Shown: positions 6,903 through 34,333, numbered from the stretch's first letter. The stretch: DNA of 64,000 bases from Gammaproteobacteria bacterium (GCA_965222615.1 CBDCUI010000009.1:800001-864000); one strand, 5' to 3'. Numbers and translations: made by a program. Notes: generated by a model not told the origin, from the letters alone.

Positions 6903-8189
6903 TTAACCGTCGTCTGATGCCGCCTTTTCGTATTCAGAGCCTTCGTAAATCAGATAAGGCTTGGAATCACCCATGATGACAGATTCATCAATCACAACCT
7001 TACTGATACTGTTTTGCGAGGGTATGTCATACATGGTATCCAACAACACATTCTCCAAGATTGTGCGCAAACCTCTGGCACCGGTTTTACGATCCATCGC
7101 TTTTCGTGCTACTGCATAGAGTGCATTTTCACGAAACTCGATTTCAACGCCTTCCATCTCGAATAAGCGGTGATATTGTTTGGTGATGGCATTTTTGGGC
7201 TCCGTCAATATTCGTACCAGTGCTTCCTCATCTAACTCTTCTAAGGTAGCCACTACTGGCAAACGGCCTACGAATTCTGGAATAAGTCCGTACTTAATTA
7301 AATCCTCAGGTTCAACATTATGCAAAATCTCACCCAACTTAATTGCATTTTCTTTAGTACGTACTTCGGCTGAAAAACCAATACCACCTTTTTCTGTGCG
7401 ATCGAGAATAACTTTATCAAGACCGGCAAATGCGCCACCACAAATGAAAAGAATGTTACTGGTATCTACTTGTAAGAATTCTTGTTGCGGGTGCTTACGT
7501 CCACCTTGCGGAGGAACAGATGCTATTGTGCCCTCAATTAATTTTAATAACGCCTGTTGAACGCCTTCGCCAGATACATCGCGAGTAATAGATGGATTAT
7601 CTGATTTGCGAGAAATTTTATCGATCTCATCTATGTAAACAATTCCCGTCTGCGCTTTATCAACATCGTAATCGCATTTTTGCAATAGCTTCTGAATGAT
7701 ATTTTCTACATCTTCTCCCACATAACCCGCTTCGGTTAATGTAGTCGCATCCGCTATAGTAAATGGAACGTTTAACAAACGCGCTAAGGTTTCTGCTAAT
7801 AATGTTTTACCTGAACCAGTTGGACCCACTAAGAGAATGTTACTTTTCGCTAATTCAACTACATTCTTACTAGTACTTCGTGCATCCAATCTCTTATAGT
7901 GGTTATAGACCGCTACCGATAAAACTTTTTTAGCGCGATCCTGACCAATTACATATTCATCAAGGATTGAATTAATTTCTACAGGTTTGGGCAGCTTTGA
8001 GCCACCAGTTGGAGACTGATCCTGCATCTCCTCACGAATGATGTCGTTACACAATTCGACACATTCATCACATATGAATACCGACGGACCAGCGATAAGT
8101 TTGCGGACCTCATGCTGACTTTTGCCACAAAAAGAGCAGTATAGAAGTTTGCCGCTGTCCTGATCCTTGGTTGTATTTTCGTCACTCAT
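6903..8189 (-). CDS. clpX: ATP-dependent Clp protease ATP-binding subunit ClpX
   Basis: Zn finger CSFCGK...[15 protein letters not shown] loop, RKH motif. Confidence 0.98.
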
Positions 8190-14941: not shown

Positions 14942-15802
14942 ATGTATTTTCCTTTAGTCATCAAGCTGTTAGCAAAATTACCCTTATCTGTATTACATGC
15001 CTTCAGCTGGATCGCTTACGTCCTACTTTTCCACATATTCGGCGTGCGCAAGCAACTTACTCTGCAAAACATAAGAAAATCACTTACTAATTATTCTGAA
15101 ACCGAACAACAGCAAATTGCCAAGAATCATTACAAAAGTATATGCATGGTATTTGCAGAAACGATTAAGTCATTTAGCTTAAACAAAGAGCAAATTAAAC
15201 AACGTGTAAAATTTATCAATTTAGAAATTTTAGAAAAATATTTAGCGAATAATCAATCAGCAATTGTTGTTACCGCACATCACTGCAATCCAGAATGGGC
15301 ATTACTAGCAATTGCTCAGCATGTAAATTTTCCTGTAGATATGATTTATCGAACTCAACGTGTCGCTTGGCTTGATAAACTATTTTATGAGCTCCGCACC
15401 AAATTCGGAATCACCCCATTACCAATGCAAACCTGTATTGCTGATTCAGTTAAGCGCTCAAAAATTACAAGAGTGATCACCTTGGCGGCAGATCAATCCC
15501 CTAAAGTAAATGATACTCCGTATTGGCATACATTTTTAAATCGCGATACAGCATTTCATACAGGAACAGAAAAAATTGCCAAAGCTTTTAAATATCCCCT
15601 TATATTTATGTCAATGAAAAGACAACGCAAAGGTTATTATGAAGCTACACTAAAGTTGTTAGCTGAACCGCCTTACACTTTAAAATCTAATGAGCTTATG
15701 CAAAAGTATATTACTGAATTAGAGGCATTAGTAACCGCGAGTCCTAAAGACTGGCTATGGGCATATCGCCGCTGGAAAATTGTCAAGCCGGTTTATGACT
15801 AG
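14942..15802 (+). CDS. Lysophospholipid acyltransferase family protein (LpxL/HtrB lipid A late acyltransferase-like), paralog 1
   Basis: HX4E motif AHHCNPEW, LAADQSP, C-terminal PKDWLWAYRRWK. Confidence 0.88.
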   Translation: MYFPLVIKLLAKLPLSVLHAFSWIAYVLLFHIFGVRKQLTLQNIRKSLTNYSETEQQQIAKNHYKSICMVFAETIKSFSLNKEQIKQRVKFINLEILEKYLANNQSAIVVTAHHCNPEWALLAIAQHVNFPVDMIYRTQRVAWLDKLFYELRTKFGITPLPMQTCIADSVKRSKITRVITLAADQSPKVNDTPYWHTFLNRDTAFHTGTEKIAKAFKYPLIFMSMKRQRKGYYEATLKLLAEPPYTLKSNELMQKYITELEALVTASPKDWLWAYRRWKIVKPVYD

Positions 15803-16512
15803 CTATCCTGATAAGAAAGTCTTTGCAAATATAAAAAGATTGCTGCAGAAATTCCCGAAGAACCAAATAACACACTCATAATTACAATTTGGTATTTCGC
15901 AGCTACTAAAGGCGAAACACCCGATAAGATTTGCCCAGTCATCATCCCTGGTAAAGCCACCAATCCAACTGCGAAAAATGTATTGATCGATGGAATCAAT
16001 GATGCCGTAAAAGCATTATTACGTGCATGTATATAATTATTTAAAACCGGACTATCTGCCTCAAAACGTTCTGCTGCCAAACTAACCGTATTCATTGCAT
16101 TAGAAAAAATCATACCTGCTAACGGAATTACGTATTGTGGTTCATACCAATAATCAATTCTAAGGACAGCAACAGTAGTCAGCATAAGTGTAGAGACTCC
16201 ACCTATGAATATGGCAAATAATGCCTCTAGAAATTTACGCAAAGAACGTTGCTTAAGTGGTCTCAGTGCAATCCAACTCGCTGCCAATAACATTATGGAT
16301 AATACAAACAACACAATACTCGAATTATTTAAAGAAAATATGGAAGTCAAAATATATCCAATAGCGATTAATTGAATTAACATGCGAACTGAAGCATAAA
16401 CCGCTGTTTTACTGTTCAACGACCAGACCGCCAAAATTACAACCACGACTACGATAGGAATCAATGCAACGGCTAAGTCAAATAACCCAATTTCATATAA
16501 ACTAATTTTCAT
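15799..16512 (-). CDS. UPF0014 / FetB(YbbM)-like ABC permease
   Basis: RMLIQLIAIGY, IPLAGMIFSNAM, GLVALPGMMTGQILSG.SPLVAAKYQI. Confidence 0.88.
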   Translation of the reverse strand: MKISLYEIGLFDLAVALIPIVVVVVILAVWSLNSKTAVYASVRMLIQLIAIGYILTSIFSLNNSSIVLFVLSIMLLAASWIALRPLKQRSLRKFLEALFAIFIGGVSTLMLTTVAVLRIDYWYEPQYVIPLAGMIFSNAMNTVSLAAERFEADSPVLNNYIHARNNAFTASLIPSINTFFAVGLVALPGMMTGQILSGVSPLVAAKYQIVIMSVLFGSSGISAAIFLYLQRLSYQDS

Positions 16513-16616
16513 ATATTTTCCTCAGTCTACTTCGAGCAGTATTTTTAAACATACCAGTGAATCCACTTTACTTTATTAAAACATATTAGTTTCTGAATCT
16601 ATTTACTGACTTAAGA

Positions 16617-17474
16617 ATGCTAAAACAAATAGTTAATCTTATTGCTGCGATGCCGATGTCAGTACTTTATGGCATTTCTAAACCGCTTTATTTTTTACTT
16701 TTTCATATTTTACGCTTGAAACGTGATATTGCAGAAAAAAATATAACTAACTCATTCCCAGATATGGATAAGAGCGAACAACAGCAGCTTCTTAAAAACC
16801 ATTACCGAAATTTATGCGATGTTATATTGGAGATAATTAAAAGCTTTAGAATGAAACCAGATCAGCTCAGTGATCATGTCAAATTCACCAATACAGATCT
16901 CATTGAACAAACACTAAAACAAGAAAAACCAATTTTATTAGCGGTTGCACATCACTGTAACCAAGAATGGGCCATGCTTGCAGCCAGCCAGCATTTTGAT
17001 ACTCCGATCGACGCGGTGTACAAACCACTACATGTAAAATGGCTTGATCAACTAGCCAATGAATCCCGCTCTCGTTTTAACATCACGTTAATTCCGGCGA
17101 AAACCTGTGTAACAGATTTAATTAAACGCGCTAATCTGACACGCATTATTGCAATTGCAGCAGATCAAGCACCGCGGCGCAGAGACGAAGCATATTGGAC
17201 TAAATTTATGCATCAAGATACGCCTTTCTACTTAGGACTTGAAAAGATTGCCTTATTATTTAAGTACCCAGTTTTTTTTATGGAGCTTGAGCGTCTTAGC
17301 CCAGGAAAATATCAAGCTAATTTCAAGCAAATCTCTAGTCCACCGTATGAGAAAGAGTCACATCTAATAACTGCACACTATGCAAGAGCCGTAGAAGAAC
17401 AAATATTACGTCGGCCAGAAGATTGGCTGTGGACTCATAAAAGATGGAAAAAGAAAAAGTCTTTATATGATTAA
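16617..17474 (+). CDS. Lysophospholipid acyltransferase family protein (LpxL/HtrB-like), paralog 2
   Basis: AHHCNQEW, IAADQAP, PEDWLWTHKRWK; clear paralog of 14942-15802. Confidence 0.88.
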   Translation: MLKQIVNLIAAMPMSVLYGISKPLYFLLFHILRLKRDIAEKNITNSFPDMDKSEQQQLLKNHYRNLCDVILEIIKSFRMKPDQLSDHVKFTNTDLIEQTLKQEKPILLAVAHHCNQEWAMLAASQHFDTPIDAVYKPLHVKWLDQLANESRSRFNITLIPAKTCVTDLIKRANLTRIIAIAADQAPRRRDEAYWTKFMHQDTPFYLGLEKIALLFKYPVFFMELERLSPGKYQANFKQISSPPYEKESHLITAHYARAVEEQILRRPEDWLWTHKRWKKKKSLYD

Positions 17475-19421
17475 TTCACTTTTTGCGCGCTCGCGTAAAA
17501 AATTTGCTAGATCATAAATACTTGGATGTTCGACTAGATCCGTTATTTCTACCTTCCCTGGATAGAGCTCATCTAATCCAGTATGTATTTCAACTAAGGC
17601 CAATGAGCTTGCCCCAATCTCTAACAGGCTATCATGAATACTAAAGGATTTATCAGGCAAGGCCTCTATACAAATTTGTCTAATTGAATTCAAAATTGCA
17701 TCACTTTGGTCTTCTGAATCATCTGCTTTATTTTTCTCTTCCAGATCGGTTAATTGCTCAATCACTTCATCATACAAACCAGCTTGATAATTATCTGCTA
17801 AAGCCGATCGCTGCACTTTGCCACTGGTTGTTTTCGGAACCTTCTTGATAGGGATGACTTGATGAACTTCTATGCCAAATTGCTCATTTACCAACGCCTT
17901 AACTTTTGCCGATAACGGTAAAAATTCTTCTGGTTTTCCCTTGTGCAATATAAACACAAGCACTTCTTCCAGATCAGTCCGTTTAGATGGCGCTCCCGCA
18001 ACCACAACCTTGCCCAACTCAATATCGGGAAGTCCTTGCAACATTTCTTCAATATCATAGGGATAATAATTCTGCCCATTTACAAAGAGTATTTCTTTAT
18101 AGCGACCTGTGATGAACAAACTTTTTTCACCTACAAAACCCAGATCACCCGTATCGACCCAACCACCTTCATAAAATATCCCACCCTCATCGCCAATAAT
18201 TTTTTCGGTTACGTTAGTTCCGCCAATATGGATGTGCCCTACGGTATTGCCAGCCAACTCATTACCATCGTGGTCACTAATTCTTACTTTGCAGTTTTTG
18301 ATAGGTGTACCCACCCCTACCAGTGCAACACTCGACTCAGAATCCTGATCGATTTCGATGGACCCTCCTATCGAAAGCGACGCACGCAACACCTTCGCGA
18401 CTTCTAAACCCGCACCAATTTCAGGAAAACTAACCGCTAAACTTGCCTCGGCCAAGCCATAAACCGGAAACATGCTATGTTCGGGCAATCCATACTTTTT
18501 CATTGCAGACATAAACTGCTCACAAAGATTTACCGAAATAGGCTCAGCGCCATTAAAAATCAAACGAACATGCGATAAATCAATATCACTTAAGCCTTTA
18601 CGTTTAAATGCATTTAAAAAATGTTTGTAGCCAAAATTTGGTGAACACAGCACAGTGGCTTTTTTTTCACTGGTGGCAGTCATCCAATACAAAGGCCGAC
18701 GCACGAACAATTCAGTGCGCATAATGTAATGACTATAATTACAAACAATTGGATTTAGATGAAAACCAATTAAGCCCATATCATGAGTTAACGGCATCCA
18801 GCTCAAACTAATATCATGCGTAGAGAAGGCAGCATCTTGTTGAATACCTTCTATATTAGCGATTAAATTTCGATGTTTTAAAACAACGCCTTTTGGACTA
18901 CCTGTAGAACCAGAGGAAAACTGAATAAAAGAGACATCTTGTGGATCAACCTTTTCAATTTCACCTGGCGAAGAAATATCTACAATCTCATCTGTAAGAA
19001 CAGTGTTTTTTTCCAACTGTGTATAGATTGAAGTTAGATCAGATTCTTGTGCACTTGCGGATAATTTAAATAAATTTTTACGATTGGTATATAGATATGG
19101 GTTACCAAGTTTTTGTGCAACATTAAATACTTTTTGACGATGTTGATCACTGATTCCTACTGCTAGTGGCACCGGGATTATTCCGCCAAATTGACATGCC
19201 CAAAAGACATCGATCATTTGTTCATTATTATTCAAGAATAAAATTAGGTAATCGCCTTTACCTATGTTTCTTTGCTGAAGGACTTTGAGCAACCCCAAAG
19301 AACGTTGATATAAAGACTCAAACGTGATTTGTTTTTCTTCATCTTGTCCCTCGATAAAGCCAACAAATCGTTGTTCACCACGATTTTGCTCTAAGGCATC
19401 GGTTAAGGTTTGAAACTGCAT
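17463..19421 (-). CDS. Fatty acyl-AMP ligase (FAAL)-like adenylation domain fused to a C-terminal carrier protein domain
   Basis: FIQFSSGSTGSPKG, SWMPLTHDMGLIG, YGLAEASL followed by a FAAL-type insertion, DTGDLGF, PKTTSGKVQR; C-terminal SLLEIGASSLAL...HPSI carrier motif. Confidence 0.88.
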   Translation of the reverse strand: MQFQTLTDALEQNRGEQRFVGFIEGQDEEKQITFESLYQRSLGLLKVLQQRNIGKGDYLILFLNNNEQMIDVFWACQFGGIIPVPLAVGISDQHRQKVFNVAQKLGNPYLYTNRKNLFKLSASAQESDLTSIYTQLEKNTVLTDEIVDISSPGEIEKVDPQDVSFIQFSSGSTGSPKGVVLKHRNLIANIEGIQQDAAFSTHDISLSWMPLTHDMGLIGFHLNPIVCNYSHYIMRTELFVRRPLYWMTATSEKKATVLCSPNFGYKHFLNAFKRKGLSDIDLSHVRLIFNGAEPISVNLCEQFMSAMKKYGLPEHSMFPVYGLAEASLAVSFPEIGAGLEVAKVLRASLSIGGSIEIDQDSESSVALVGVGTPIKNCKVRISDHDGNELAGNTVGHIHIGGTNVTEKIIGDEGGIFYEGGWVDTGDLGFVGEKSLFITGRYKEILFVNGQNYYPYDIEEMLQGLPDIELGKVVVAGAPSKRTDLEEVLVFILHKGKPEEFLPLSAKVKALVNEQFGIEVHQVIPIKKVPKTTSGKVQRSALADNYQAGLYDEVIEQLTDLEEKNKADDSEDQSDAILNSIRQICIEALPDKSFSIHDSLLEIGASSLALVEIHTGLDELYPGKVEITDLVEHPSIYDLANFLRERAKSELII

Positions 19422-19526
19422 GTAGTATTGAATTTTTTATTAACTGGTTCAGGTAGTTAGAATATAACAGGCGAGTTTTATCCTTAATTGAATAATGAAA
19501 ATTTATGATTATAATTTAGTAGGATT

Positions 19527-19565
19527 AATGCTAAGAATACGTCCTTAGGACGTATTCTTAGCATT
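19527..19565. promoter_or_regulatory. Perfect 39-bp palindrome, putative AbiEi operator 1
   Basis: aatgctaagaatacgtcct-t-aggacgtattcttagcatt (19-bp arms). Confidence 0.75.
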
Positions 19566-19628
19566 TAATTAACCAATTGTCAACACCCTTTTAGCCTTAT
19601 AATCAGGCACTACATAGACTCTAAATAT

Positions 19629-19674
19629 TTGACATTCGTCGTAATATAGGGTATACGTCCTAAGGACGTATACC
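19629..19674 (+). promoter_or_regulatory. Sigma70-type promoter of abiEi with an overlapping 25-bp palindromic operator 2
   Basis: TTGACA at 19629-19634; palindrome ggtatacgtcct-a-aggacgtatacc (19650-19674) covers the expected -10 position, 12 bp before the ATG. Confidence 0.72.
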
Positions 19675-19686
19675 TCTTTATGCTAT

Positions 19687-20583
19687 ATGAAGCTCACTAA
19701 AGCAGTATCCCTTAGTTTAGGCGATCTAGACCAGCCGGTAGTCACCTCATACCAGCTTGGATTAATCATATACAACTTGTATTTCTCAAAAAGTTATAAG
19801 AATGAACAAATTAAGCAAATAAAAAAACAAGCTGCAGACTACCAAGATTTCACAAGAATTGTCAGAAACCTCTATGAAGAAGGAATTTTATCCCGTTGCA
19901 AGGGATTACCTATAAAAGCTGCGTACAGTGTACTAGGTAGAAAACCCAACTCACCAGATGAAGTTGTTTGTTTAGTAGATCCTTTCTGTTATTTATCACA
20001 TTTAAGTGCCTTAAGTTACCATGGTATGACAAACAGAATTCCCGCTAAAGTATTTATCTCAACACCAACAAATGATCAGTGGAAAATATTCGCATTTGAA
20101 AAAATGAGTAAAGATCTAAAAAAACACTTACATAAATACATTAATAGTGGCTTTCCTAAATTGACAAAAATTAAAATCTCTAAGATTAATAAAAAAGATA
20201 TACATATTATGAACAGCTCACATTTAGGTGCGTACCGAAATGTTAAAGATAGAGCTTTGCGCGTTTCTACAATTGGAAGAACTTTTTTAGATATGTTACG
20301 TAATCCAGAGTTATGTGGTGGTATAAACCATGTTCTTGAAATTTTTGAAAATCATGCTGCCGATTACCTAGATTTGATTATTGATGAAATAGACCAACAT
20401 GGTCGGCCAATTGACAAGGTTAGAGCAGGGTACATAATTGATGAAGTTTTAAACTTATCCAGTGATCGTATAGACAAATGGCTTTCTTTTGTTCAAAGAG
20501 GTGGTTCAAGAAAACTAGATTCGACTCAAGAATATATGCCTGAGCATTCTGCCAAATGGTGCATTTCCATAAATACATATTAA
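19687..20583 (+). CDS. abiEi: Type IV toxin-antitoxin antitoxin, AbiEi family (transcriptional regulator)
   Basis: YLSHLSALSYHGMT and RVSTIGRTFLDMLRNPELCGG motifs; directly upstream of an AbiEii toxin. Confidence 0.82.
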   Translation: MKLTKAVSLSLGDLDQPVVTSYQLGLIIYNLYFSKSYKNEQIKQIKKQAADYQDFTRIVRNLYEEGILSRCKGLPIKAAYSVLGRKPNSPDEVVCLVDPFCYLSHLSALSYHGMTNRIPAKVFISTPTNDQWKIFAFEKMSKDLKKHLHKYINSGFPKLTKIKISKINKKDIHIMNSSHLGAYRNVKDRALRVSTIGRTFLDMLRNPELCGGINHVLEIFENHAADYLDLIIDEIDQHGRPIDKVRAGYIIDEVLNLSSDRIDKWLSFVQRGGSRKLDSTQEYMPEHSAKWCISINTY

Positions 20584-20587
20584 AATT

Positions 20588-21460
20588 GTGTCTCAAAATA
20601 TAGAAGAATACGATATTACATCCTGGGTTTCTGATATAGATGATGAAAACCAAAAAGAATTTAGACAAGCTGTACATACAATTTTAATTGCTATTGCTAA
20701 AAATGATGAATTAAAAGCTAGCATGATAATAAAAGGAGGGATTCTCCTTGCAGTCAGATACCACAGTCCAAGATTTACGACAGATATCGATTTTTCAACA
20801 AATGATAACCTAGATGAAGCTTATAGAAATAAGATATACGAATCCCTAAATACAAGCCTGAAGAAAGTTGTTGAATCACTCGATTATGGATTAGATTGTC
20901 AAGTTCAAAGTTGCAGAATACAACCTACAAACATACAGAATCCCACATTCCCGGAACTAAAAATAACTATAGGCTATGCATACAAAGGTTCTGATAAACA
21001 TCAAAGATTAATTGCAGGTCAATCTCCAGATATAGTTTCAATAGATTTCAGTTTTAATGAAGTAATCAATAAAATTGAACACATCACTTTGGACAATAAC
21101 TGTCAAATACAAGCGTATTCTATTACAGATGTTGTATCTGAAAAGTATAGATCAGTTTTACAACAAAAAGTAAGAAATCGTAATAGAAGACAAGATGTAT
21201 ACGATTTATTTTTAATCTTAAACAGTATTAAAACATTCAATGTAGAAGAAAAGAAATTAATTCTTACAAGTCTAATTTCAAAATCAGAAAATAAAGGGAT
21301 ATCGCCTAATCGACATTCCCTTAGAGATGAAGAGACAATAAAAAGAGCAAAACATGAATATTCGAGTCTTGAGTTTGAAATTAATGAAGAATTACCAGAA
21401 TTTGATAATTCTTACTCTACAGTTCGAGAGTTTTATGAGTCATTACCATGGAATAATTAA
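20588..21460 (+). CDS. abiEii: Type IV toxin, AbiEii/AbiGii-family nucleotidyltransferase
   Basis: IKGGILL...PRFTTDIDFS, EKYRSV, RRQDVYDL motifs of DUF1814 NTases. Confidence 0.88.
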   Translation: MSQNIEEYDITSWVSDIDDENQKEFRQAVHTILIAIAKNDELKASMIIKGGILLAVRYHSPRFTTDIDFSTNDNLDEAYRNKIYESLNTSLKKVVESLDYGLDCQVQSCRIQPTNIQNPTFPELKITIGYAYKGSDKHQRLIAGQSPDIVSIDFSFNEVINKIEHITLDNNCQIQAYSITDVVSEKYRSVLQQKVRNRNRRQDVYDLFLILNSIKTFNVEEKKLILTSLISKSENKGISPNRHSLRDEETIKRAKHEYSSLEFEINEELPEFDNSYSTVREFYESLPWNN

Positions 21461-21542
21461 TCAACATTTATTTATTGTTTAATGTGCACATTTTTTAATT
21501 TGTACCCCTTTATACTTTTCTGTTTTTCCCAATTAATATAAG

Positions 21543-21586
21543 GAATGGCTTCGCCATATTTAATTTGCGCATAATATCCATGCGCA
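21543..21586. repeat. 44-nt two-hairpin tRNA-linked repeat, copy 2
   Basis: gaatggcttcgccatatttaatttgcgcataatatccatgcgca. Confidence 0.78.
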
Positions 21587-21591
21587 CGTGC

Positions 21592-21708
21592 GGGCAGAGG
21601 GATTTACTCGAGCCATTCATGGAAAATATCATATTAAATGAGCGCATCCTCCCTGATGCGAAATCTCACTCGCGTATCCCTACACTCGCCAAACAAATTT
21701 GTGAACCC
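21592..21708 (-). pseudogene. Split tRNA-Pro-like remnant interrupted by a REP-like repeat
   Basis: gggcagagggattt (21592-21605) is identical to tRNA-Pro 28264-28277; gaaccc resumes at 21703; the intervening 21644-21687 matches the repeat at 62860-62902 in reverse. Confidence 0.55.
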
Positions 21709-21791
21709 TATTGTGGTTCCACTCCCCTCGACTCTGCGTCTTTAAAATAAAAGAGACCTCACTTTGAGTGAATAATTATTATATTGATAAT

Positions 21792-21835
21792 GAATGGCTT
21801 CGCCATACTTAACTTGCGTGTAGTACCTACACGCA
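21792..21835. repeat. 44-nt two-hairpin tRNA-linked repeat, copy 3
   Basis: gaatggcttcgccatacttaacttgcgtgtagtacctacacgca, followed by tggtc (complement of the tRNA-Pro 3' end GACCA) at 21840. Confidence 0.78.
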
Positions 21836-22160
21836 AAGGTGGTCTGCATTAACGTGATTACTGCACCCAGAGCACTAAGTGCCTGAATTAAAAGCATTCT
21901 TTTTTAATCTGAAAGGACCCCCCTGGGGGCAAATTTGCCTCCATAGATACACAAATAGTGGGTCCCAGAGTCTAAAAATTTTTAATATTTTTGAAATTTT
22001 TAATATAACTATATATCCCTATTATTTATAGGGTTTACAGTTATGATAAACAGAACTCTAAAATTTGATATGAACTATAGAGGATCAGATTTATTCCATA
22101 AATCAGAATAAGAATATATCTCAATCAATGAAGTTGGTATTTATCACCAATTTTATGCTT

Positions 22161-22964
22161 TTACCCTGCACTTCTAAAAACAATAAATGTAGCATCATCT
22201 TTATGATCTAGATTTTCAGCAATTTTAAAAAATTTATTAGACAATAAATTAGCTGCTTTTTTTAAGGGTCCAGATTTTATAAGTTTTAGACACTCATCAA
22301 GTGGTATCAAATCCGTTATACCGTCACTACACATAAACAAAGTGTCTGACTTTTTAAGTTCAATTTCTGGACCTATTTCAATATGCATGTCCGTATTACC
22401 TACTAAGTGAAACACTTCATGTGAAATTTCTGAATCCAAATGCTCTTCTGTAACGAGCTCAGATCGAAGTGCATACCCTAATGGCGAGTGTTCCGTATTA
22501 CGATAAATAAGTTTTCCTCGTTGTCCAGTAATCGCAATCACAGAATCACCCACATGAAAGGGTCTGCATCGATTTTCTTCGATGGAAACAATACACGCTG
22601 TTGCGCCTGCACCGGTTTTCAACTCCATCACAGATTTATTCGCAAATTCAATTGCATTTAAGATCGATGCGCGAATTATTTGATCTTCGTTAGAGTCATG
22701 TAGCAGTTCTTTCTTTAATTCATTAATAACGATTTGTGAGGCTTGTTGCCCACCTAACTGTCCACCTGCTCCATCGGATAATCCAAGTACTAGCTCGTGG
22801 TGATTTAAAGGTATCAGAATAGCGCTATCTTGATTGTCCTCTGCAATGTTCGAGGAAGGAAAACTAAATGCAGCAACTTCACCCGCGCTAAATAGGCTAA
22901 TTTCAGGCTTTTTAAGCAGTGATGATTTGTATACAACCGTGCTGTTTGCTAATTCATTCATCAT
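22161..22964 (-). CDS. PP2C-family Ser/Thr protein phosphatase
   Basis: NQDS, LSDGAGG, HVGDS, MCSDGITD, KDDAT motifs. Confidence 0.88.
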   Translation of the reverse strand: MMNELANSTVVYKSSLLKKPEISLFSAGEVAAFSFPSSNIAEDNQDSAILIPLNHHELVLGLSDGAGGQLGGQQASQIVINELKKELLHDSNEDQIIRASILNAIEFANKSVMELKTGAGATACIVSIEENRCRPFHVGDSVIAITGQRGKLIYRNTEHSPLGYALRSELVTEEHLDSEISHEVFHLVGNTDMHIEIGPEIELKKSDTLFMCSDGITDLIPLDECLKLIKSGPLKKAANLLSNKFFKIAENLDHKDDATFIVFRSAG

Positions 22965-22988
22965 ACATCACTAGTTTTCAATACTTTT

Positions 22989-24365
22989 TTAAAACAACGG
23001 AAGCATAAGGGTCGCAATGCTCAGAACTAAAAAGAATCCACATAAATCGGTGATTGTTGTTAGTACAGGGCCTGATGCCACCGCTGGATCCACATTAATC
23101 CATCGTAATAAAAGCGGTACTGTACCACCGATTGACACTGCTACAAGCGTATTGAGTGCAAGTGCAACACCCACGACAAAACTTAAAACTAAATTGCTTT
23201 GCCATAAATAGGCAACGATACCAAGCAAAATTCCTAAAGCAACGCCGTTAATTAAGCCCACTTTCGCTTCTTTGAACCATACGTGTAATACATCTAGAGG
23301 TTTGACGAGCCCTAATGAAAGTTCTCGCATACTTACTGCTACTGCCTGATTGCCGGAGCATCCACTCATATCCGAAACGATAGGTAAAAACACTGCTAAC
23401 GCAATAACAGCACTCAGAGTATCCGTAAACATCGCAATAACGCTTGCAGAGATTACGTTAAGGATAATATTTATACTTAACCAAGAAAGGCGGCGTCGGG
23501 AACGAGTTGCAGTAGGCATACTCCTCGTTTCTTCACCTACAACAATACCTTTAGATTTTAGCTGTGCTATATCAGCACGCTCTGCAATTGCACGTAAAAC
23601 ATCTTGTCGCCTAACGACGCCTACTAATCGACTTGCATCATCGACAACTGGAACACCATAAAAATCATGCGCATCAAATAATTCTTTAAGTTCATCTAAT
23701 GAAGAGGATAATTGAACATAAACTGGGGTTATTAATATCTCTTTTAAAGCTGTTTCTCTTGATACCAATAACAGTTTTCGCGAACTTACAACGCCCAGTA
23801 ATTTATTTTTTTCCGAAGTTACGTAAAAGTTCGCCTCAAACTCTGATCGATCTTTCGTTGTTTGTTGGAGAAAATTTATAACATCATTGACTTGTGAAAA
23901 CTCTTTGAAGGAAACATATTCTGTAACCATCAAGCCGCCTGCCTCATCATCCGGAAATGTTGCAAGCTCTCGAACTTCAGCCGCTTCTGCAGGATCCATT
24001 TCTGCTAAAATTGCCTCGGCTTCGTCCACATCAAGATCACCAACAATATCAGCTTGTTCATGACTTTCCATTTCTTCTAAGATGGAGGCCGCATCTTTTG
24101 AAGGAAGCTGCTCCACTAAATCAGCTGCTTGTTCATCCGGGACATCAAGGATAATCTCCGCAGCATCTATAGGAGCTAAACTGGATAATAGTTTTTGCTG
24201 ATCTTCATTACTTAATCGACTAAACACCCGCAGTGTTTCATCTGATTCAAGACTATTTAAGAATGCACTTGTTTCATGAACATTACTTGCCATGATAAGT
24301 TCATGTAGTTTTTCCCACGGTTCGATTGATTTTTCACTACTAAAATTTTCATGCATATCAGACAT
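22989..24365 (-). CDS. mgtE: Magnesium transporter MgtE
   Basis: Acidic N domain, AGGLM plus CBS pair, TM domain with DMSGCSGNQ and DPAVASGPVLTTITD. Confidence 0.93.
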   Translation of the reverse strand: MSDMHENFSSEKSIEPWEKLHELIMASNVHETSAFLNSLESDETLRVFSRLSNEDQQKLLSSLAPIDAAEIILDVPDEQAADLVEQLPSKDAASILEEMESHEQADIVGDLDVDEAEAILAEMDPAEAAEVRELATFPDDEAGGLMVTEYVSFKEFSQVNDVINFLQQTTKDRSEFEANFYVTSEKNKLLGVVSSRKLLLVSRETALKEILITPVYVQLSSSLDELKELFDAHDFYGVPVVDDASRLVGVVRRQDVLRAIAERADIAQLKSKGIVVGEETRSMPTATRSRRRLSWLSINIILNVISASVIAMFTDTLSAVIALAVFLPIVSDMSGCSGNQAVAVSMRELSLGLVKPLDVLHVWFKEAKVGLINGVALGILLGIVAYLWQSNLVLSFVVGVALALNTLVAVSIGGTVPLLLRWINVDPAVASGPVLTTITDLCGFFLVLSIATLMLPLF

Positions 24366-24456
24366 TTTCTTGTACCTAAAATATTTATCTATTTAAAGAT
24401 GTATTACATTCTTGAAAAAATTATTAAATTTACTTCACACATAAATTCATATAAAT

Positions 24457-24479
24457 AAAAAAGGCTGCATCTGCAGCCC
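24457..24479 (-). terminator. Intrinsic terminator downstream of the rimK operon
   Basis: Minus strand ggctgca-ga-tgcagcc followed by a T run. Confidence 0.6.
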
Positions 24480-24510
24480 AATTTTTAAATGCAAAGTTAT
24501 GCACATCAGC

Positions 24511-25524
24511 TTATGTTGTTTGCACAAATTCATAGTTATCAAGACTTTCTACAACTTTCTCAACATTTCTAAAGTATGCAATGTGATACAGTGGATCACC
24601 TTCATATACAAGTGGAATGTTTGACTTACCAATTACAATCCCATCGTCAGGAGCTAATACATTTACTGGGCTAAATGATCCACTAACATCTTCTACACTT
24701 CCTATAATTTGATTTTTTAGGATTTGTTTTCCTAATCGAGTTTTTGATCTAAAGATCCCGCTTATTGGGGCACGCATCCAGCTACTCGTCTTTGCAATCT
24801 GAGGTTCAGCTATATTTGACTTATTTTTTTGTGGCAAATCTATCATACCAAGATGCTTCATGACCCTTAGTATTCCACTTATCCCTGCTTTAATGTTTGC
24901 TTCATTGAAACGCATCGCTTCACCTGCTTCATATACTAGTACATGCACATTACTCGCACGTGCAGCTTCACGTAATGAGCCATCACGCAACTTAGAATTA
25001 ACGATCACGGGCACACCAAATGATATTGCTAAATCTTTCGTTTCACTGTCACTTAAATCCGCGCGAATTTGAGGTAAGTTATCGCGATTTAATGCAGCGG
25101 TATGTAAATCGATACCATGAGTACAATTAGCAACGATTTCATTCATAAATAAATTTGCAAGACGAGCTGCCAAAGATCCTTGTGAAGATCCAGGAAAACT
25201 ACGATTTAAATCACGACGATCAGGTAAATAACGCGAGTGCTGCAACATCCCGTAAACATTTACTACTGGAACAGCAATCAAGGTGCCCATAAGTTTTTTC
25301 ACAGAAATTCGTTTAATAAGTCGCCTTACAATTTCTACGCCATTTAGTTCATCTCCATGAATCGCAGCACTTACAAATAATTTAGGCCCATCTTCCCCGC
25401 CACGAATGACATGTACAGGCATAGTCAGTGGTGCGTTTGTATATAAAGGTGGGAGCTCAAGTTGCAATATTGTACTTGTAGCCGGTTTAATAACTATATT
25501 CGACAGTGTTAATTCTTCACTCAA
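24511..25524 (-). CDS. Succinylglutamate desuccinylase/aspartoacylase (M14) family protein
   Basis: AAIHGDELNG, DLNRSFPG, DLHT, YEAGE motifs; usual rimK neighbour. Confidence 0.9.
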   Translation of the reverse strand: MSEELTLSNIVIKPATSTILQLELPPLYTNAPLTMPVHVIRGGEDGPKLFVSAAIHGDELNGVEIVRRLIKRISVKKLMGTLIAVPVVNVYGMLQHSRYLPDRRDLNRSFPGSSQGSLAARLANLFMNEIVANCTHGIDLHTAALNRDNLPQIRADLSDSETKDLAISFGVPVIVNSKLRDGSLREAARASNVHVLVYEAGEAMRFNEANIKAGISGILRVMKHLGMIDLPQKNKSNIAEPQIAKTSSWMRAPISGIFRSKTRLGKQILKNQIIGSVEDVSGSFSPVNVLAPDDGIVIGKSNIPLVYEGDPLYHIAYFRNVEKVVESLDNYEFVQTT

Positions 25525-25570
25525 TTTATTTCAATACCTAGTAGGAAAAAATTTGAGACATTTGACTCTA

Positions 25571-26479
25571 TTAGCCTTTTCCACGTGTTCGTGTTCTATT
25601 TGGTCTAGCATTTTTCTCAATAAATTCGATAATCATCCCTGCAACGTCTTTTTGAGTAGCTTTCTCTATTCCCTCGAGTCCGGGTGAAGAATTCACTTCC
25701 ATTATTACAGGTCCACGATCAGAACGAAGTAAATCGACTCCCGCGACATTTAATCCCATTTTTTTTGCTGCTTTTATAGCAGTAGCTCTTTCTTGTGGAG
25801 TTAATTTCACAAGTGTTGCTGTACCACCTCGATGTAGATTTGAACGAAACTCACCTTCAGATGCTTGGCGCATCATTGCAGCAACGACCTTTTCACCTAT
25901 AACAAAGGCACGTATATCTGCACCACCCGCTTCTTTAATAAACTCTTGTACCAAAAAATTAGCGCCAAGTTGTCGAAATGCATCGATAATCGTTTCTGCG
26001 GCTTTCTGAGTTTCGGCTAGAACAATACCTTTTCCCTGTGTACCCTCAATTAGCTTTACAACCAACGGGGCACCATTCACTAAACTAATCAGATCTTTTG
26101 TATTTTTCGTAGAATTAGCAAAACCTGTTAGTGGCAACCCAACACCTGCACGTGCGAGAATTTGTAATGAGCGTAATTTGTCTCTAGAACGTGTAATTGC
26201 GATCGATTCATTTAGCGGATACGTTCCCATCATTTCAAATTGGCGTACGACCGCACAGCCATAAAAAGTGATTGAGGCACCAATCCGTGGAATAACTGCA
26301 TCAAACCGAGGTAACTCTTTACCTTTTAAATGAACGCATGGTTTATCAGTAGCGATGTCCATATAACAATCGACTGTATTTACAATCTCAATGTTATGTT
26401 GGCGTTCTTTTGCTGCTTCAATGAGTCGCTTATTTGAATATAACCTGTCTCCACCTTTAGTTAGTAATGCAATATTCAT
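25571..26479 (-). CDS. rimK: Ribosomal protein S6--L-glutamate ligase (ATP-grasp)
   Basis: [44 protein letters not shown]. Confidence 0.95.
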
Positions 26480-26483
26480 ATTT

Positions 26484-26936
26484 TTAATTTAGCCATTTTT
26501 TACCAATTAAATAGGAACGTGCAGGATTAACAATAAACCGGTTCTTAATAGCTTCACGACCCAGTAACATTCTAAACAACATGTTTTCTCTATCTGTGAG
26601 TGTAATTTCAGCATTCCACTCAAAATGGCCCAATTTAATGGGGGTTTCAATTACATATCTTTTTTCACGATGGCCACCGGAGTCTGTGACCGTTCTTGTG
26701 TCTAAGACCTTGCTTTTACATTCTACAATTTTGGTTTTATTTCGTTGTAGTGGATGGAGTCCAAACTTTACAAATAACTGCCCTTTATTATTATGGTATG
26801 GCTCAATGTAGAATGCATGTAAAGCAGAAGTCCTTGCACCCGTATCAACTTTACATTTAATTTTATCAATACCAAGTTTAGGTAAAGAAATCCATTCGCG
26901 CCAACCAATTAAATTATCAGGATTATTTTTCTTCAT
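26484..26936 (-). CDS. RimK-associated putative protease (RimB-like, retropepsin-type DTG motif)
   Basis: [34 protein letters not shown]. Confidence 0.9.
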
Positions 26937-26986
26937 AGACTGCTACAAGATATATTAATTTATGTAAAAAGGTGACTATTTATATC

Positions 26987-27127
26987 TTATATTGCAAAAT
27001 CTTGTTCAAATTGTTCATCTAATAAATCGAGTTCGTATGATTCTAACTCATATAAAATATCATCAAATTCGTCTTCGTCTTCGTCTTTACTAGGACAAAG
27101 CACTATTTTGTTTTTTTTACTTCCCAT
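26987..27127 (-). CDS. Unannotated 46-aa acidic microprotein (MGSKKNKIVLCPSKDEDEDEFDDILYELESYELDLLDEQFEQDFAI)
   Basis: Manually translated ATG..TAA ORF with TAAGG just upstream; fills the gap between the RRM gene and the rimB-like gene, same strand; below the ORF track cutoff. Confidence 0.55.
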   Translation of the reverse strand: MGSKKNKIVLCPSKDEDEDEFDDILYELESYELDLLDEQFEQDFAI

Positions 27128-27145
27128 GCCTTACTATACTTAGAG

Positions 27146-27379
27146 CTAGTGAGTTTTATAAATACGTAGAGTTCTAAAATCAATTTCATGACCGTTGAGT
27201 CTTACCATTGCAAGTTCTCCGGACTCATCTGACATTTCAACTGTACCCATGCCACGAGATTTCCCAGTATCCCAATCAGTAATCACTGTTGCATTGATCA
27301 CTTCGCCTACAGAGCAAAACAGTTCTTTCAAGTCAAAATCCGTAAAAACATAAGGAATGTTTTCAATTAATAGTTTCAT
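27146..27379 (-). CDS. RRM/RNP-type RNA-binding protein
   Basis: LLIENIPY (RNP2-like), TGKSRGMGTVEM (RNP1-like), LNGHEIDFRTLRI; AGGAG RBS. Confidence 0.85.
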   Translation of the reverse strand: MKLLIENIPYVFTDFDLKELFCSVGEVINATVITDWDTGKSRGMGTVEMSDESGELAMVRLNGHEIDFRTLRIYKTH

Positions 27380-27812
27380 TGCATCCGTCTCCTAGCTCAA
27401 TAATAGAGCTTTTGTGTGCGCATTTTTTTAGTATGCACAATCCGTAACTTCCAAAGAAGCATTTTCTAAGGAACCTATGAATTAGAAGCGACTACAGATT
27501 TCTGGCTGAAAACCTCAGGAAGAATATCGGAGTGAGGGCCCTAATTTGAGTGGAGAATACTCTTGAAATAACTCAAACGCGAGAAATTTTAAAAAGAACA
27601 GGTTCACAATTTTGAGTAAAAAAACTGGGTCAACTAGCTACTTAATTTTTTAAATTATTAATTAAAAAAACGTCAAATTTAGCTCCGTTTCTGAACCAAA
27701 ACTGCTCCTCTAAGTAGATATATACGAGGCCAAAAGTTAGGAGGATTATCCGCGCGCCTTTAGTAATTAGAGGCCTATTTTTAACTTGTTTTATTTGAAA
27801 GGATGAGTTGTT

Positions 27813-28064
27813 ATGAGCTATGGGTCTAATACTAAAAAAGTATTTCAGAAAATGCTTGAAAGAGCTTGTAAGGATAGCGTAGTCACACCAAAAGAGTTGT
27901 TACGCGAACTGGTAAGTTCAGGCTACAAAAATATTTATGATATGGAAATCACACTTGATGAATTAAAATCAATTTGTGAAGATCTTGAAGATAGTAAAGA
28001 AATTGAAGAACTCCACAGCCATAAAGCTGGAGTTAAATCAAACTTTGATTCTATGGAAATTTAA
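27813..28064 (+). CDS. Hypothetical protein
   Basis: 83-aa ORF with AAGGA RBS; no recognised motif. Confidence 0.55.
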   Translation: MSYGSNTKKVFQKMLERACKDSVVTPKELLRELVSSGYKNIYDMEITLDELKSICEDLEDSKEIEELHSHKAGVKSNFDSMEI

Positions 28065-28257
28065 TGTGGTACATCAATCAGAGGAAAGACTACGTACCAT
28101 TATCCCAGTCTAAATTTAGTTAGATTGAATCTCCCCATTTTGGACACACTGGTAGCAGCGTGGGAGCACTTACTAGAAATCAATGATTTAAACTACAAGA
28201 TAAACGTAGGAAACACTCTTAAATTCTTAATAATAAACGACGAAAGGTGTTGTAAAG

Positions 28258-28334
28258 TGGTCGGGGCAGAGGGATTTGAACCCCCGACCCTCTGCTCCCA
28301 AAGCAGATGCGCTACCAGACTGCGCTATGCCCCG
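28258..28334 (-). tRNA. tRNA-Pro(TGG)
   Basis: Revcomp CGGGGCATAGCGCAGTCTGG...TCTGCTTTGGGAGCAGA...GGTTCAAATCC...CCCCGACCA. Confidence 0.96.
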
Positions 28335-29153: not shown

Positions 29154-29876
29154 ATGCCACAAACTCTTTTTGTTTCAGATTTACACTTAGATAACAAAAG
29201 GCCGCATATCGTTGCGGCCTTTTGTCGTTTTCTGAATGAGATTACTGATGCCGATGCACTCTATATACTAGGTGATCTATTTGAATTCTGGATTGGAGAT
29301 GACGATCCAGCACTCGGCCTCGAATCTGTTATTGAAGCCTTAAAAAATTTAAGCGGCTCTGGTGTTCCCATCCATTTTATCCATGGTAATCGAGACTTTT
29401 TATTAGGCAAGAAATTTGCAAACAATACCAACTGCAAAATCCTTCCAGAAGAAGCGATTATCGACTTATATGGAACCCCTACTCTGATTATGCATGGAGA
29501 TACATTGTGTACTGATGATATTGCTTACCAAAAATATCGAGCCAAAGCCCGTAACAAGTGGATTCAAAAAACTTTATTACTGTTAAGCGTAAAGCAACGG
29601 CTTAAAATTGCCGAAAGACTGAGAAATAAAAGCATCTCTGCCACTCAAGGCAAGCACCCTGAGATCATGGATGTCAATCAGAATACAGTTGAACAAATTA
29701 TGCTTTCGCATAATGTACAGCATTTGATTCATGGACATACACATCGACCTGCTATTCACAATTTCACCATCAATAATCAAGAATATAAGCGTATTGTATT
29801 AGGTGATTGGTATGAACAAGGCAGCGTACTAAGATGCACACCAGATAGCATGACACTAGAGACAATAAACGCTTAA
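29154..29876 (+). CDS. lpxH: UDP-2,3-diacylglucosamine diphosphatase
   Basis: SDLHL, LGDLFEFWIGDD, GNRDFLLG, HGDTLCTDD, HGHTHRP, LGDW. Confidence 0.96.
   Translation: MPQTLFVSDLHLDNKRPHIVAAFCRFLNEITDADALYILGDLFEFWIGDDDPALGLESVIEALKNLSGSGVPIHFIHGNRDFLLGKKFANNTNCKILPEEAIIDLYGTPTLIMHGDTLCTDDIAYQKYRAKARNKWIQKTLLLLSVKQRLKIAERLRNKSISATQGKHPEIMDVNQNTVEQIMLSHNVQHLIHGHTHRPAIHNFTINNQEYKRIVLGDWYEQGSVLRCTPDSMTLETINA
29194..29225 (+). terminator. Terminator-like hairpin inside the 5' end of lpxH
   Basis: acaaaaggccgca-tatcgt-tgcggccttttgt, perfect 13-bp arms, T-rich tail. Confidence 0.5.
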
Positions 29877-29901
29877 ATGCCCGTATCGACCCAAAGTTAC
29901 C
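29876..29901 (+). repeat. Short hairpin repeat copy R0 (degenerate)
   Basis: aatgcccgtatcgacccaaagttacc, begins at the lpxH stop codon; similar to R2. Confidence 0.45.
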
Positions 29902-30067
29902 ATTCAATTTATTACCTTTAATACGATAAACACCCCATATAAGCGTGACTCTGGTTTACTCATTCGATAAAACCAGGACCATATTAATCCATCATTACAT
30001 GTTTAATTTACTTGCGTAATAGGCGAGTTAATTGGGGATAATAAAGGATTAAATTATTAGCAAGATC

Positions 30068-30574
30068 ATGAGGGACAAAAAAATATTATTTCTAATTACT
30101 ATGTTCCTAGTAGTCATACTTTTATCTGGGGTTTTCTTAATTCAATATTTAGAAAAAAGGAGGAATTTAGAGCTTGTCGAAAAAATTACTTCACTCGAAT
30201 TGTTTGATATTAATGTAATTAAAATTGCGAAATTAAAAAACTGGAAGCCTGAAGATTGTTTGGTAATTAACAAACGAGAGAATGTTGAAGCATTCATGGA
30301 AGTGTTCAAACAAGTCAAGCCAGGAGGCATCGATGATGAAGAAACCATAGCGGTTGAGAGATTTGTAATTATTGATACCGATTATGGAACCCGCACTTAT
30401 CTAGCAACCATATATGAAACCGCCCCAGAGAAAATAATAATTACCCAAGATATTTATAAAGTGAAAAGGCATAGTAACTACAACCTAAAATTTTCTGGAA
30501 AAGAAGTGAGTCTTAATAATCAATCTAATTGGTTTCTTGATTTACTAAGGTCAAACAACTGTCTAGCTCGGTAA
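30068..30574 (+). CDS. Hypothetical protein with an N-terminal TM anchor
   Basis: 168-aa AT-rich ORF, hydrophobic N-terminus. Confidence 0.7.
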   Translation: MRDKKILFLITMFLVVILLSGVFLIQYLEKRRNLELVEKITSLELFDINVIKIAKLKNWKPEDCLVINKRENVEAFMEVFKQVKPGGIDDEETIAVERFVIIDTDYGTRTYLATIYETAPEKIIITQDIYKVKRHSNYNLKFSGKEVSLNNQSNWFLDLLRSNNCLAR

Positions 30575-30824
30575 TTTGAGCGTCACTCCTGTTATATCTC
30601 TAAACCGAGACAGTTATTCGTATAGGTAACACTCCTGTATTCGTATTATCGCCCGATAGGCGGTACTAATTTACATTATAGCTAACTGATAATTATGAAG
30701 AATTTGTATTGAAGGATGGATAGCATATTAAGTCGCTATCTAAACATTGAATTGTTACTCATCTACCGGGGGTCGTATGTATATTTCTTTCATGGCGTGC
30801 AACAAAATTCATATATCGAATACT

Positions 30825-32360: not shown

Positions 32361-32460
32361 ATTTTTGTCAACGATTATTGTTATTAAAAACCAAGCTTTT
32401 AATCATCTGATGTGCGCAAATCGAAATAAGTAAATTATAACCTCCCATAATTAGCCATTC

Positions 32461-32994
32461 ATGACTTCTATCCGTGAAGCAACGAATCTGGATCGTGACA
32501 ATATTTGCGAAATACACATGCTCAGCTTTGATAAATCCGAAGCAAAGAATGTTGCAACGCTCGCATCCAATCTTCTTGACGAAAAAACAAGCCCTGAAAC
32601 ATTGACGAAGGTTGCCGAAATAGATGGCGCAGTGGTAGGCCACATAGCATTCAGTCCAGTAACTTTTGATTCGAGCAAGGATTTGAAAGGTTATATCTTG
32701 GCACCACTTGGCGTAAAACCCGAGTATCAAAAACGCGGAATCGGATCGAAACTCATTGAAAATGGTATAGAGTTACTAACAAGGAAAGGAGTCAACGTAT
32801 TATTTGTTTACGGTGATCCGAAGTTTTACGGCAAGTTCAGGTTCAAAGTCGAGACTGCTGCCAGATACTTGCCACCTTACAAGTTACAGTATCCTTTTGG
32901 GTGGCTAGCACTTACCCTTAACGAGGAGGGTTCTGCTGAACATACTGTCAAGATATCGTGTGTAGCTTCATTGTGCGATCCAGCACTATGGTAA
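32461..32994 (+). CDS. GNAT N-acetyltransferase (YhbS-like)
   Basis: VVGHIAFSP, LAPLGVKPEYQKRGIGSKLI, VYGDPKFYGKF. Confidence 0.9.
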   Translation: MTSIREATNLDRDNICEIHMLSFDKSEAKNVATLASNLLDEKTSPETLTKVAEIDGAVVGHIAFSPVTFDSSKDLKGYILAPLGVKPEYQKRGIGSKLIENGIELLTRKGVNVLFVYGDPKFYGKFRFKVETAARYLPPYKLQYPFGWLALTLNEEGSAEHTVKISCVASLCDPALW

Positions 32995-33015
32995 TCATGC
33001 TGCTAACAAAACATT

Positions 33016-33042
33016 AATGTCTGCTATTGGCCAAAAGCAGAC
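33016..33042 (+). repeat. 27-bp hairpin repeat copy R1
   Basis: aatgtctgctattggccaaaagcagac; stem gtctgct/agcagac. Confidence 0.7.
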
Positions 33043-33097
33043 TTAATTTAAACCATTTAGGTAAATATCAGGTTGGAAACTTTAAAATCTTATTGAA

Positions 33098-34329: not shown

Positions 34330-34333
34330 AAAG

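Follow-up and report, generated by a model that had tools for sequence, protein, structure and literature searches.

A fatty acyl-AMP ligase-carrier fusion clustered with two LpxL-like acyltransferases: a candidate acylation module of Gammaproteobacteria

Introduction

How permeable the outer membrane is, how well it resists cationic peptides and how the innate immune system recognises it are set by the secondary acylation of lipid A, which is taught as drawing its chains from type II fatty acid synthesis (FAS-II) in the form of acyl-AcpP. This article concerns a locus at positions 14942-19421 of a 64,000-nucleotide stretch of DNA from a gammaproteobacterium (GCA_965222615.1, CBDCUI010000009.1:800001-864000), the whole of which is referred to below as the window. 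The locus encodes a fatty acyl-AMP ligase (FAAL) fused to a carrier domain and two neighbouring LpxL-family enzymes, labelled here LpxA1 and LpxA2. The ligase keeps a late-acyltransferase-type neighbour across many families of Gammaproteobacteria, and the arrangement suggests that acyl chains reach the outer membrane by a route not yet described.

In the AlmEFG system of Vibrio cholerae, glycine is adenylated and loaded onto a phosphopantetheinyl carrier, from which a membrane enzyme of the LpxL family transfers it to lipid A (PMC4278540). A first-pass annotation of the window, made from sequence alone, had proposed an AlmEF-like loader, and the likeness stands as far as the architecture is concerned, namely a dedicated carrier serving an LpxL-family enzyme. 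It does not extend to the parts. AlmE is an amino-acid ligase (DltA-like) and AlmF a separate small carrier, encoded in one operon with AlmG, whereas here the ligase is FAAL-type, the carrier is fused to it, and the two transferases, which are the genome's only late acyltransferases, are convergent and share no single operon with it.

Dedicated carriers are also found in the Rhizobiales, where AcpXL and the LpxL-family transferase LpxXL add a very-long-chain (omega-1)-hydroxy secondary chain to lipid A (available text of PMC5613085). Unlike in that system, the chain at the present locus would come from a free acid via the FAAL, and its oxidation from a cytochrome P450 (P450). The AcpXL chain is built by dedicated FabZ/FabF-type elongation enzymes; by contrast, no ketosynthase or dehydratase domain occurs in the 52 non-overlapping open reading frames (ORFs) of at least 100 aa in the window.

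A third point of comparison is DUF374, the family of the LpxJ 3'-secondary acyltransferases of lipid A (available part of PMC6148475). The partner of the FAAL-carrier is a DUF374 protein in most distant relatives, but the organism's own genome differs in having no match to DUF374/LpxJ (PF04028) at 99.8% completeness. In the literature searched, no LpxJ was reported to come with its own loader or with a P450. The Aas and LplT-Aas systems resemble the locus in that an AMP-forming enzyme activates a free fatty acid, which travels on an acyl carrier protein (ACP) to an acyltransferase; they differ in combining a PlsC-type (PF01553) transferase with AcpP, in place of a fused carrier and PF03279 transferases. 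Finally, didomain FAAL-ACPs have been described as loaders of polyketide synthases (PKS) and nonribosomal peptide synthetases (NRPS), including those for hapalosin, olefin synthase and others, and the available sections of a 2025 review give them no acyltransferase-coupled or lipid A role (PMC11837247). The fusion shares their didomain architecture; the examples given there feed PKS or NRPS, of which the organism's own genome has none. No published description of a FAAL-carrier/late-acyltransferase module was found in a search that did not cover most subscription journals and supplements.

Gene content of the locus

All of the genes described in the first-pass annotation were found in place, and the features of the locus are as follows.

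14942..15802, + strand: LpxA1, LpxL-family (PF03279) late-acyltransferase-like, 286 aa (Pfam E 2e-35, 122.8 bits)
15799..16512, - strand: FetB-like UPF0014 permease, 237 aa (PF03649 E 6e-54)
16617..17474, + strand: LpxA2, LpxL-family (PF03279) late-acyltransferase-like, 285 aa (Pfam E 8e-37, 127.5 bits)
17463..19421, - strand: FAAL-carrier fusion, 652 aa (Pfam AMP-binding and PP-binding)
17496..17681, - strand: carrier (PP-binding) domain of the fusion, residues 581-642, with the S606 codon at 17604-17606

The FAAL-carrier and LpxA2 genes run tail to tail, and their 3' ends, already noticed to overlap, do so by 12 bp (17463-17474); being convergent, the two genes are not co-transcribed. Also borne out was the earlier remark that no gene for a PKS, NRPS, condensation or thioesterase function was in view, since none of these domains occurs in the same 52 ORFs.

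The genome as a whole (3.1 Mb) narrows the possible roles of these proteins. LpxA1 and LpxA2 are its only PF03279 genes, and genes for LpxC, LpxH, LpxK and WaaA are present. Only two PP-binding domains are encoded genome-wide, those of AcpP and of the fusion, together with a single phosphopantetheinyl transferase (PPTase), which is AcpS-type. With no carriers other than these two, there is no PKS or NRPS for the acyl-carrier to serve, and LpxA1 and LpxA2, as the only late-acyltransferase genes, are the sole candidates for secondary acylation of lipid A. Among sequencing runs, the stretch occurs in three of DNA type, all from one study, and no RNA run was listed for it.

Conservation of the linkage and exchange of partners

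Orthologs of the FAAL-carrier (62-75% identity) are present in 15 of 24 genomes of the same family. An LpxL-like gene adjoins the FAAL-carrier in 14 of the 15 loci fetched, and the fifteenth ends inside the FAAL gene; 12 of the 14 assessable loci are of the convergent LpxA2 type and two have the FetB-like gene with a gene of the LpxA1 type. The flanks, comprising tig, a CPBP protease gene and a CHAP-domain gene, are also syntenic within the family, so linkage inside the family alone would not prove coupling. Among the nine same-family genomes that lack the FAAL-carrier, five have no PF03279 gene at all, and the other four have one more canonical LpxL together with an LpxL-like gene beside a 1143-aa fusion of MFS, PlsC and AMP-binding domains. 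The joint absence in those five genomes favours coupling.

A wider scan, using one genome per species, yielded 80 loci with FAAL-carrier orthologs of 42-75% identity, a few of them from the same genomes as the set labelled G below. They span Steroidobacteraceae, Woeseiaceae, Thioalkalispiraceae, Chromatiaceae, Thiotrichales, and some Burkholderiales, Lysobacterales and Pseudomonadales. Neighbouring proteins were clustered, representatives were annotated with Pfam, and hidden Markov models (HMMs) were then searched against six-frame ORFs; the HMMs were built from the same loci, and the family names rest on independent Pfam matches. Two layouts recur among the 80 loci, 66 of which had flanks long enough to be assessed (at least 2.6 kb on the upstream side and 1.3 kb on the downstream side). 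The first consists of a DUF374 gene (reverse), an optional PPTase gene (reverse), a P450 gene (forward) and the FAAL-carrier (forward); the second, of an optional P450 gene (forward), the FAAL-carrier (forward) and an LpxL-like gene (reverse). A late-acyltransferase-type gene is adjacent in 59 of the 66 loci (51 DUF374, 8 LpxL-like), rising to 61 once LpxL-like genes lying 5-8 kb downstream are included. The P450 gene is directly upstream of the FAAL-carrier in 54 of the 66, and a PPTase gene is found in 23. Outside the organism's own family, the acyltransferase neighbour persists in 53 of 60 assessable loci despite completely different flanks.

The same association emerges from an even sample of 401 Gammaproteobacteria, 42 of which match the FAAL-carrier profile at E <=1e-100. 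Twenty-three of these were kept, with full-length matches of at least 687 bits; two genomes (G186 and G313) were excluded because their matches lie inside frames of 2523 aa and 1430 aa, and 17 because their best match, at no more than 368 bits, covers the adenylation part only. In the 22 ortholog genomes examined (G324 was left out), an acyltransferase gene lies within about 2.5 kb in 18, representing 15 families. A gene of the LpxL-like subfamily is adjacent in six (G000, G007, G010, G052, G143 and G242), and a DUF374 gene lies within about 2.5 kb in 12, being the sole DUF374 gene of the genome in each case except for a tandem pair in G426. Genes of the LpxL-like subfamily (E <=1e-60) occur in 15 of 400 scored genomes, and the FAAL-carrier is present in 9 of those 15 versus 14 of the 386 others.

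The FAAL-linked DUF374 proteins score 61-76 bits on the Pfam model, below most unlinked DUF374 genes. In all five DUF374-type genomes examined for it, the module's DUF374 gene is the only one in the genome, accompanied by one canonical LpxL elsewhere, and it is the only LpxM/LpxJ-type candidate in those five. In a FastTree phylogeny of 73 FAAL-carrier proteins, LpxL-adjacent members are interleaved with DUF374-adjacent sisters, and the label requires at least three changes. The ligase keeps an acyltransferase neighbour while the family of that acyltransferase changes, and this is the strongest argument for coupling. Conservation of gene neighbourhood, which the first-pass annotation had put forward as a check, thus proved positive and far wider than one family, with the late-acyltransferase-type neighbour drawn from either of two Pfam families. 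The FAAL-carrier is very probably coupled functionally to late-acyltransferase-type enzymes.

Several further arrangements were seen among these loci. Ten of the 66, of a Woeseiaceae type (L087-L109), have a DUF3108 gene upstream of DUF374, and in them the FAAL-carrier is followed directly by a gene for FabH (KAS III). In three Steroidobacteraceae-like loci among those that lack a nearby acyltransferase, a radical SAM/SPASM gene replaces the upstream P450 (L067:8613-9986, L089:8389-9651 and L104:8549-9736); these may be an oxygen-independent variant.

The FAAL-carrier fusion

The first-pass annotation had described a FAAL-type adenylation domain and a carrier domain with its serine in a GASSL motif, and profile searches agree on both. 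The AMP-binding match covers residues 21-406 (PF00501, E 1e-49) of an adenylation domain that extends over approximately residues 1-550, and the PP-binding match covers residues 581-642 (PF00550, E 1e-6, 29.3 bits versus a cut-off of 20.8). The best NCBIfam model is the fatty acyl-AMP ligase NF006624, which aligns in a single stretch over residues 2-550 at 341.9 bits, short of its cut-off of 600; NF004509 likewise aligns in one stretch, over residues 29-549. CoA-ligase models split on the fusion and leave residues 331-368 or so unmatched, at the place where FAALs have an insertion. This is indirect evidence for the insertion that characterises FAALs, lying between their N- and C-terminal subdomains, and by its sequence the adenylation domain is assigned to the FAAL type, not the DltA type.

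The SSGSTGxPKG, TGD, GR and PKTTSGK motifs are invariant in an alignment of homologs, as are G603, S606 and L607 of the carrier, S606 being the phosphopantetheine serine of GASSL and invariant in 15 homologs. The best matches in the Protein Data Bank are the adenylation-peptidyl carrier loading didomain of McyG (over the whole length), the FAALs of E. coli and L. pneumophila, and FadD32, with 3pbk and 3kxw among the FAAL entries. One in-frame stop was seen in each of four FAAL-carrier orthologs, namely G010 (C1:75594-77543, TAG), G279 (TGA), G362 (TAA) and G266 (TAA), which could be decaying copies or sequencing errors.

The LpxL-like acyltransferases

LpxA1 and LpxA2 both pass the PF03279 gathering cut-off of 22.3 bits comfortably and share 42% identity over 281 residues, in keeping with the paralogy noted before. 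The AHHCN[PQ]EW motif had been considered unusual; it is present, as AHHCNPEW in LpxA1 (dyad H113/E118, codons 15278-15280 and 15293-15295) and AHHCNQEW in LpxA2 (H112/E117, codons 16950-16952 and 16965-16967), but an unusual active site can be rejected, for this is the normal HX4[E/D] dyad of the PF03279 family. Of the two histidines of the motif, only the first, which is that of the dyad, is invariant across 23 relatives; the second is variable (H/Q/Y/T), and the acid is E or D except for V in three sequences. Those three belong to genus g3 (L023, L024 and L025), in which the sole LpxL-like gene, at approximately 7140-8000, reads AHHCNPVW.

Neither protein reaches the NCBIfam equivalog cut-offs for LpxL, LpxP or LpxM. 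The best model, NF006270, gives 95.8 bits for LpxA1 and 125.6 for LpxA2 versus a cut-off of 248; the corresponding values are 71.8 and 97.2 versus 297.8 for TIGR02207, and 40 and 52 versus 336 for TIGR02208. An AlphaFold 2 model of LpxA2 (pLDDT 91.8) has as its top Foldseek match LpxM of A. baumannii (5kn7/5knk; TM 0.78, E 1e-15), with PatA second. A predicted complex of LpxA2 with the carrier domain (residues 566-652), run without controls, gave a median score of 0.20 against a mark of 0.32 and counts neither way.

An HMM of the linked LpxL-like proteins separates them from the canonical enzymes: linked members score 387-452 bits, three neighbours of the Aas-like fusion 285-319, and 17 canonical proteins of LpxL/LpxM type, encoded in the same genomes or in related ones, at most 100. 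In a quick maximum-likelihood tree (IQ-TREE), the linked and Aas-adjacent proteins form one clade apart from the canonical ones (SH-aLRT 100), and LpxA1 falls inside the FAAL-linked subfamily. The FAAL-linked LpxL-like proteins are a separate, divergent subfamily, apart from canonical LpxL. Their nearest relatives were found in two genera of the organism's own family without the FAAL-carrier, beside the LplT-Aas-like fusion and a TetR gene (L128:3937-8658, also L126 and L130), which is a second pairing of the LpxL-like subfamily with a fatty-acid-activating enzyme.

The two transferases are no add-on. They are the only PF03279 or DUF374 genes that the genome has, and LpxA1 and LpxA2 are for this reason probably its equivalents of LpxL and LpxM. 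Secondary acyl transfer to Kdo2-lipid IVA would then fall to them.

The P450 partner

The module P450 has CYP97, CYP4B1, CYP3A and CYP102/BM3 as its nearest solved relatives, a sequence relationship that fits a fatty-acid hydroxylase without proving one. It is present in 4 of the 15 loci of the organism's own family, including that of the same-genus genome G001. Compared with G001, its place in the window is taken by the region of an AbiEi/AbiEii cassette (19422-21693), and no P450 remnant was detected in the window (tblastn E above 2). The genome's single P450, elsewhere on the same contig (contig 9, 234108-235406), was considered as the missing partner and rejected, since it shares no more than 25-27% identity with the P450 found in the modules of two relatives.

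Proposed mechanism

In the scheme that we infer, the starting point is a free carboxylic acid, a fatty acid most likely, which the FAAL domain would adenylate. The acyl group would then be thioesterified to the phosphopantetheine arm on S606 of the fusion's own C-terminal carrier, which the AcpS-type enzyme would have to activate, as the only PPTase in the genome. LpxA1 and LpxA2 would take the acyl-carrier as donor, bypassing AcpP, and through their HX4E dyads would acylate a membrane glycolipid at a hydroxyl group, most likely at the two secondary positions of Kdo2-lipid IVA. In most relatives, including the same-genus species, the CYP4/CYP102-like P450 encoded upstream probably oxidises the chain to give a hydroxy-acyl donor; the present genome, having lost the P450 to the AbiE cassette, would load the unmodified acid. 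There is about an even chance that the locus is such a three-enzyme acylation module, with the FAAL-carrier as donor to LpxA1 and LpxA2 and, most likely, lipid A as the acceptor.

Given coupling, lipid A is somewhat favoured as the acceptor. The genome encodes the Raetz pathway and no late acyltransferases besides LpxA1 and LpxA2, and there are two paralogs for two secondary positions. Elsewhere, the module's DUF374 gene is the sole LpxJ-type gene of the genome. Genes of lipopolysaccharide-related function also lie close by, with GT9 heptosyltransferase genes beside the module in 8 of the 66 assessable loci (9 of 80 overall), and lpxH 1.5-3 kb away in relatives that lack the island described below, in the order lpxH, ppiB, tRNA-Pro, P450, FAAL-carrier, LpxL-like.

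The general form of the proposal is more tentative. It holds that across many Gammaproteobacteria (Steroidobacteraceae, Woeseiaceae, Thioalkalispiraceae, Chromatiaceae, the organism's own Thiotrichales-labelled family and others) one or both secondary chains of lipid A come from a free fatty acid that is hydroxylated by the P450, loaded by the FAAL onto its fused carrier and installed by an LpxL- or LpxJ-like enzyme, and not from FAS-II acyl-AcpP. This may be so, but is on present evidence doubtful.

Alternative explanations

A number of observations weigh against the proposed module. The acyltransferase and ligase genes never form one operon, being convergent here and divergent in the DUF374 type. 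Five of the 66 assessable loci have no acyltransferase nearby, and adjacency is also missing in 4 of the 22 genomes of the even sample; in three of these four the assembly is fragmented and the LpxL-like gene lies on a different contig, and the fourth has neither an LpxL-like nor a DUF374 gene, and its FAAL frame contains a stop. Genomes within a family are kin, and the counts therefore overstate independence. The catalytic glutamate is replaced by valine in genus g3. The substrate may also be other than supposed: the McyG loading didomain loads aryl acids, and as the top structural match it suggests that the acid may not be a plain fatty acid.

The alternative that survives best retains the coupled module and changes its acceptor. 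The LpxL-like enzymes would act on a lysophospholipid, or on some other lipid or glycolipid of the envelope, and the product would be exported. The module would then be a split analogue either of the repair of membrane lipids by Aas/LplT or of the lipid-anchoring step in aryl-polyene clusters, in which an AMP-ligase and ACPs are combined with an LpxL-like enzyme. The clade that is sister to the linked LpxL-like proteins adjoins the 1143-aa MFS-PlsC-AMP-binding fusion with its TetR gene, and the annotation of that fusion as acyl-ACP--phospholipid acyltransferase suggests phospholipid rather than lipid A chemistry. NCBIfam "lysophospholipid acyltransferase" models score nearly as well as LpxL models, and PatA, the second-best fold match, is a PF03279 member with a non-lipid-A acceptor. 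In Steroidobacteraceae, P450, FAAL-carrier, Fur, HlyD, RND and LpxL-like genes follow one another in one direction, placing HlyD and RND between ligase and transferase, and the LpxL-like gene after an RND pump, as in exported-lipid clusters. Such an acceptor would, however, leave the genome without any secondary acyltransferase for lipid A despite a full Raetz pathway. It also sits poorly with the DUF374-type genomes, whose module gene is the sole LpxJ/LpxM-type candidate, and with the GT9 heptosyltransferase genes and, in the organism's own family, lpxH beside the module. It is an unlikely reading, if one of some weight.

Somewhat less likely still is that the LpxL-like enzymes are housekeeping LpxL and LpxM working on AcpP-bound chains, while the P450 and FAAL-carrier serve another enzyme, for example in hydroxy-acyl supply, and merely share a neighbourhood of envelope biogenesis. 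That LpxA1 and LpxA2 are the only late acyltransferases of the genome agrees with this, as do the convergent, separately transcribed genes and the retention of the rest of the module after the P450 was lost. DUF374 genes occur in 53 of the 401 genomes (four unpublished ones included), about three quarters of them without a FAAL-carrier, and DUF374 late acyltransferases are thus not generally dependent on it. Yet the genome, with two carrier domains and no PKS or NRPS, offers no other consumer for the acyl-carrier; adjacency has outlasted at least three replacements of the acyltransferase family and extends over 15 families; and the linked LpxL-like proteins form a separate, divergent subfamily, not part of canonical LpxL.

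That the adjacency is inherited synteny without functional meaning, as the conserved tig, CPBP protease and CHAP-domain flanks of the organism's own family might suggest, is highly improbable, being contradicted by the loci outside the family with their different flanks, by the even sample and by the FAAL tree.

Neighbouring genes and the genomic island

The FetB-like permease gene, which the first-pass annotation did not mention, sits between those of LpxA1 and LpxA2 and shares 4 bp at its 3' end with the 3' end of the LpxA1 gene. It scores 97.8 bits against TIGR00245 (FetB), below the cut-off of 410, and has no FetA-type ATPase gene beside it. A FetB-like gene lies beside an LpxL-like gene in 11 of the 15 same-family loci and is missing in genus g7; none was seen in the distant modules. 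Its membership of the system is uncertain.

Three features outside the system provide context.

19687..21460, + strand: AbiEi/AbiEii toxin-antitoxin cassette (AbiEii PF08843 E 8e-27; AbiEi_1 a weak match)
28258-28334: tRNA-Pro
29154..29876, + strand: lpxH, UDP-2,3-diacylglucosamine diphosphatase, a Raetz-pathway gene (TIGR01854, 319.7 bits versus a cut-off of 190)

Beyond the cassette, an 80-bp match to G001 (21693-21772) marks an old junction. Next to tRNA-Pro, a further stretch of 6.5 kb (21772-28258) carries genes for a PP2C phosphatase, MgtE, an AstE-like enzyme, RimK and a Zn protease. Another 4.6 kb (29866-34442), between lpxH and a DUF455 gene, is absent from the same-genus genome and codes for a TPR/DUF4034 protein, a GNAT acetyltransferase and an MBL-fold protein.

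Significance

If the proposed module is real, it would join AcpXL/LpxXL and AlmEFG as a third route to lipid A with a carrier of its own, the first of them to begin with free fatty acids and the first with a P450. Didomain FAAL-ACP proteins would also gain a function beyond PKS and NRPS pathways. In the present genome, completion of lipid A would depend entirely on the FAAL-carrier. Where the P450 is retained, the route would amount to a P450-dependent decoration of lipid A together with a scavenging route into the outer membrane. The linkage defines a subfamily of LpxL-like enzymes that is open to testing, and it predicts a feature of lipid A that may be present in abundant sediment and marine groups such as the Woeseiaceae and Steroidobacteraceae.

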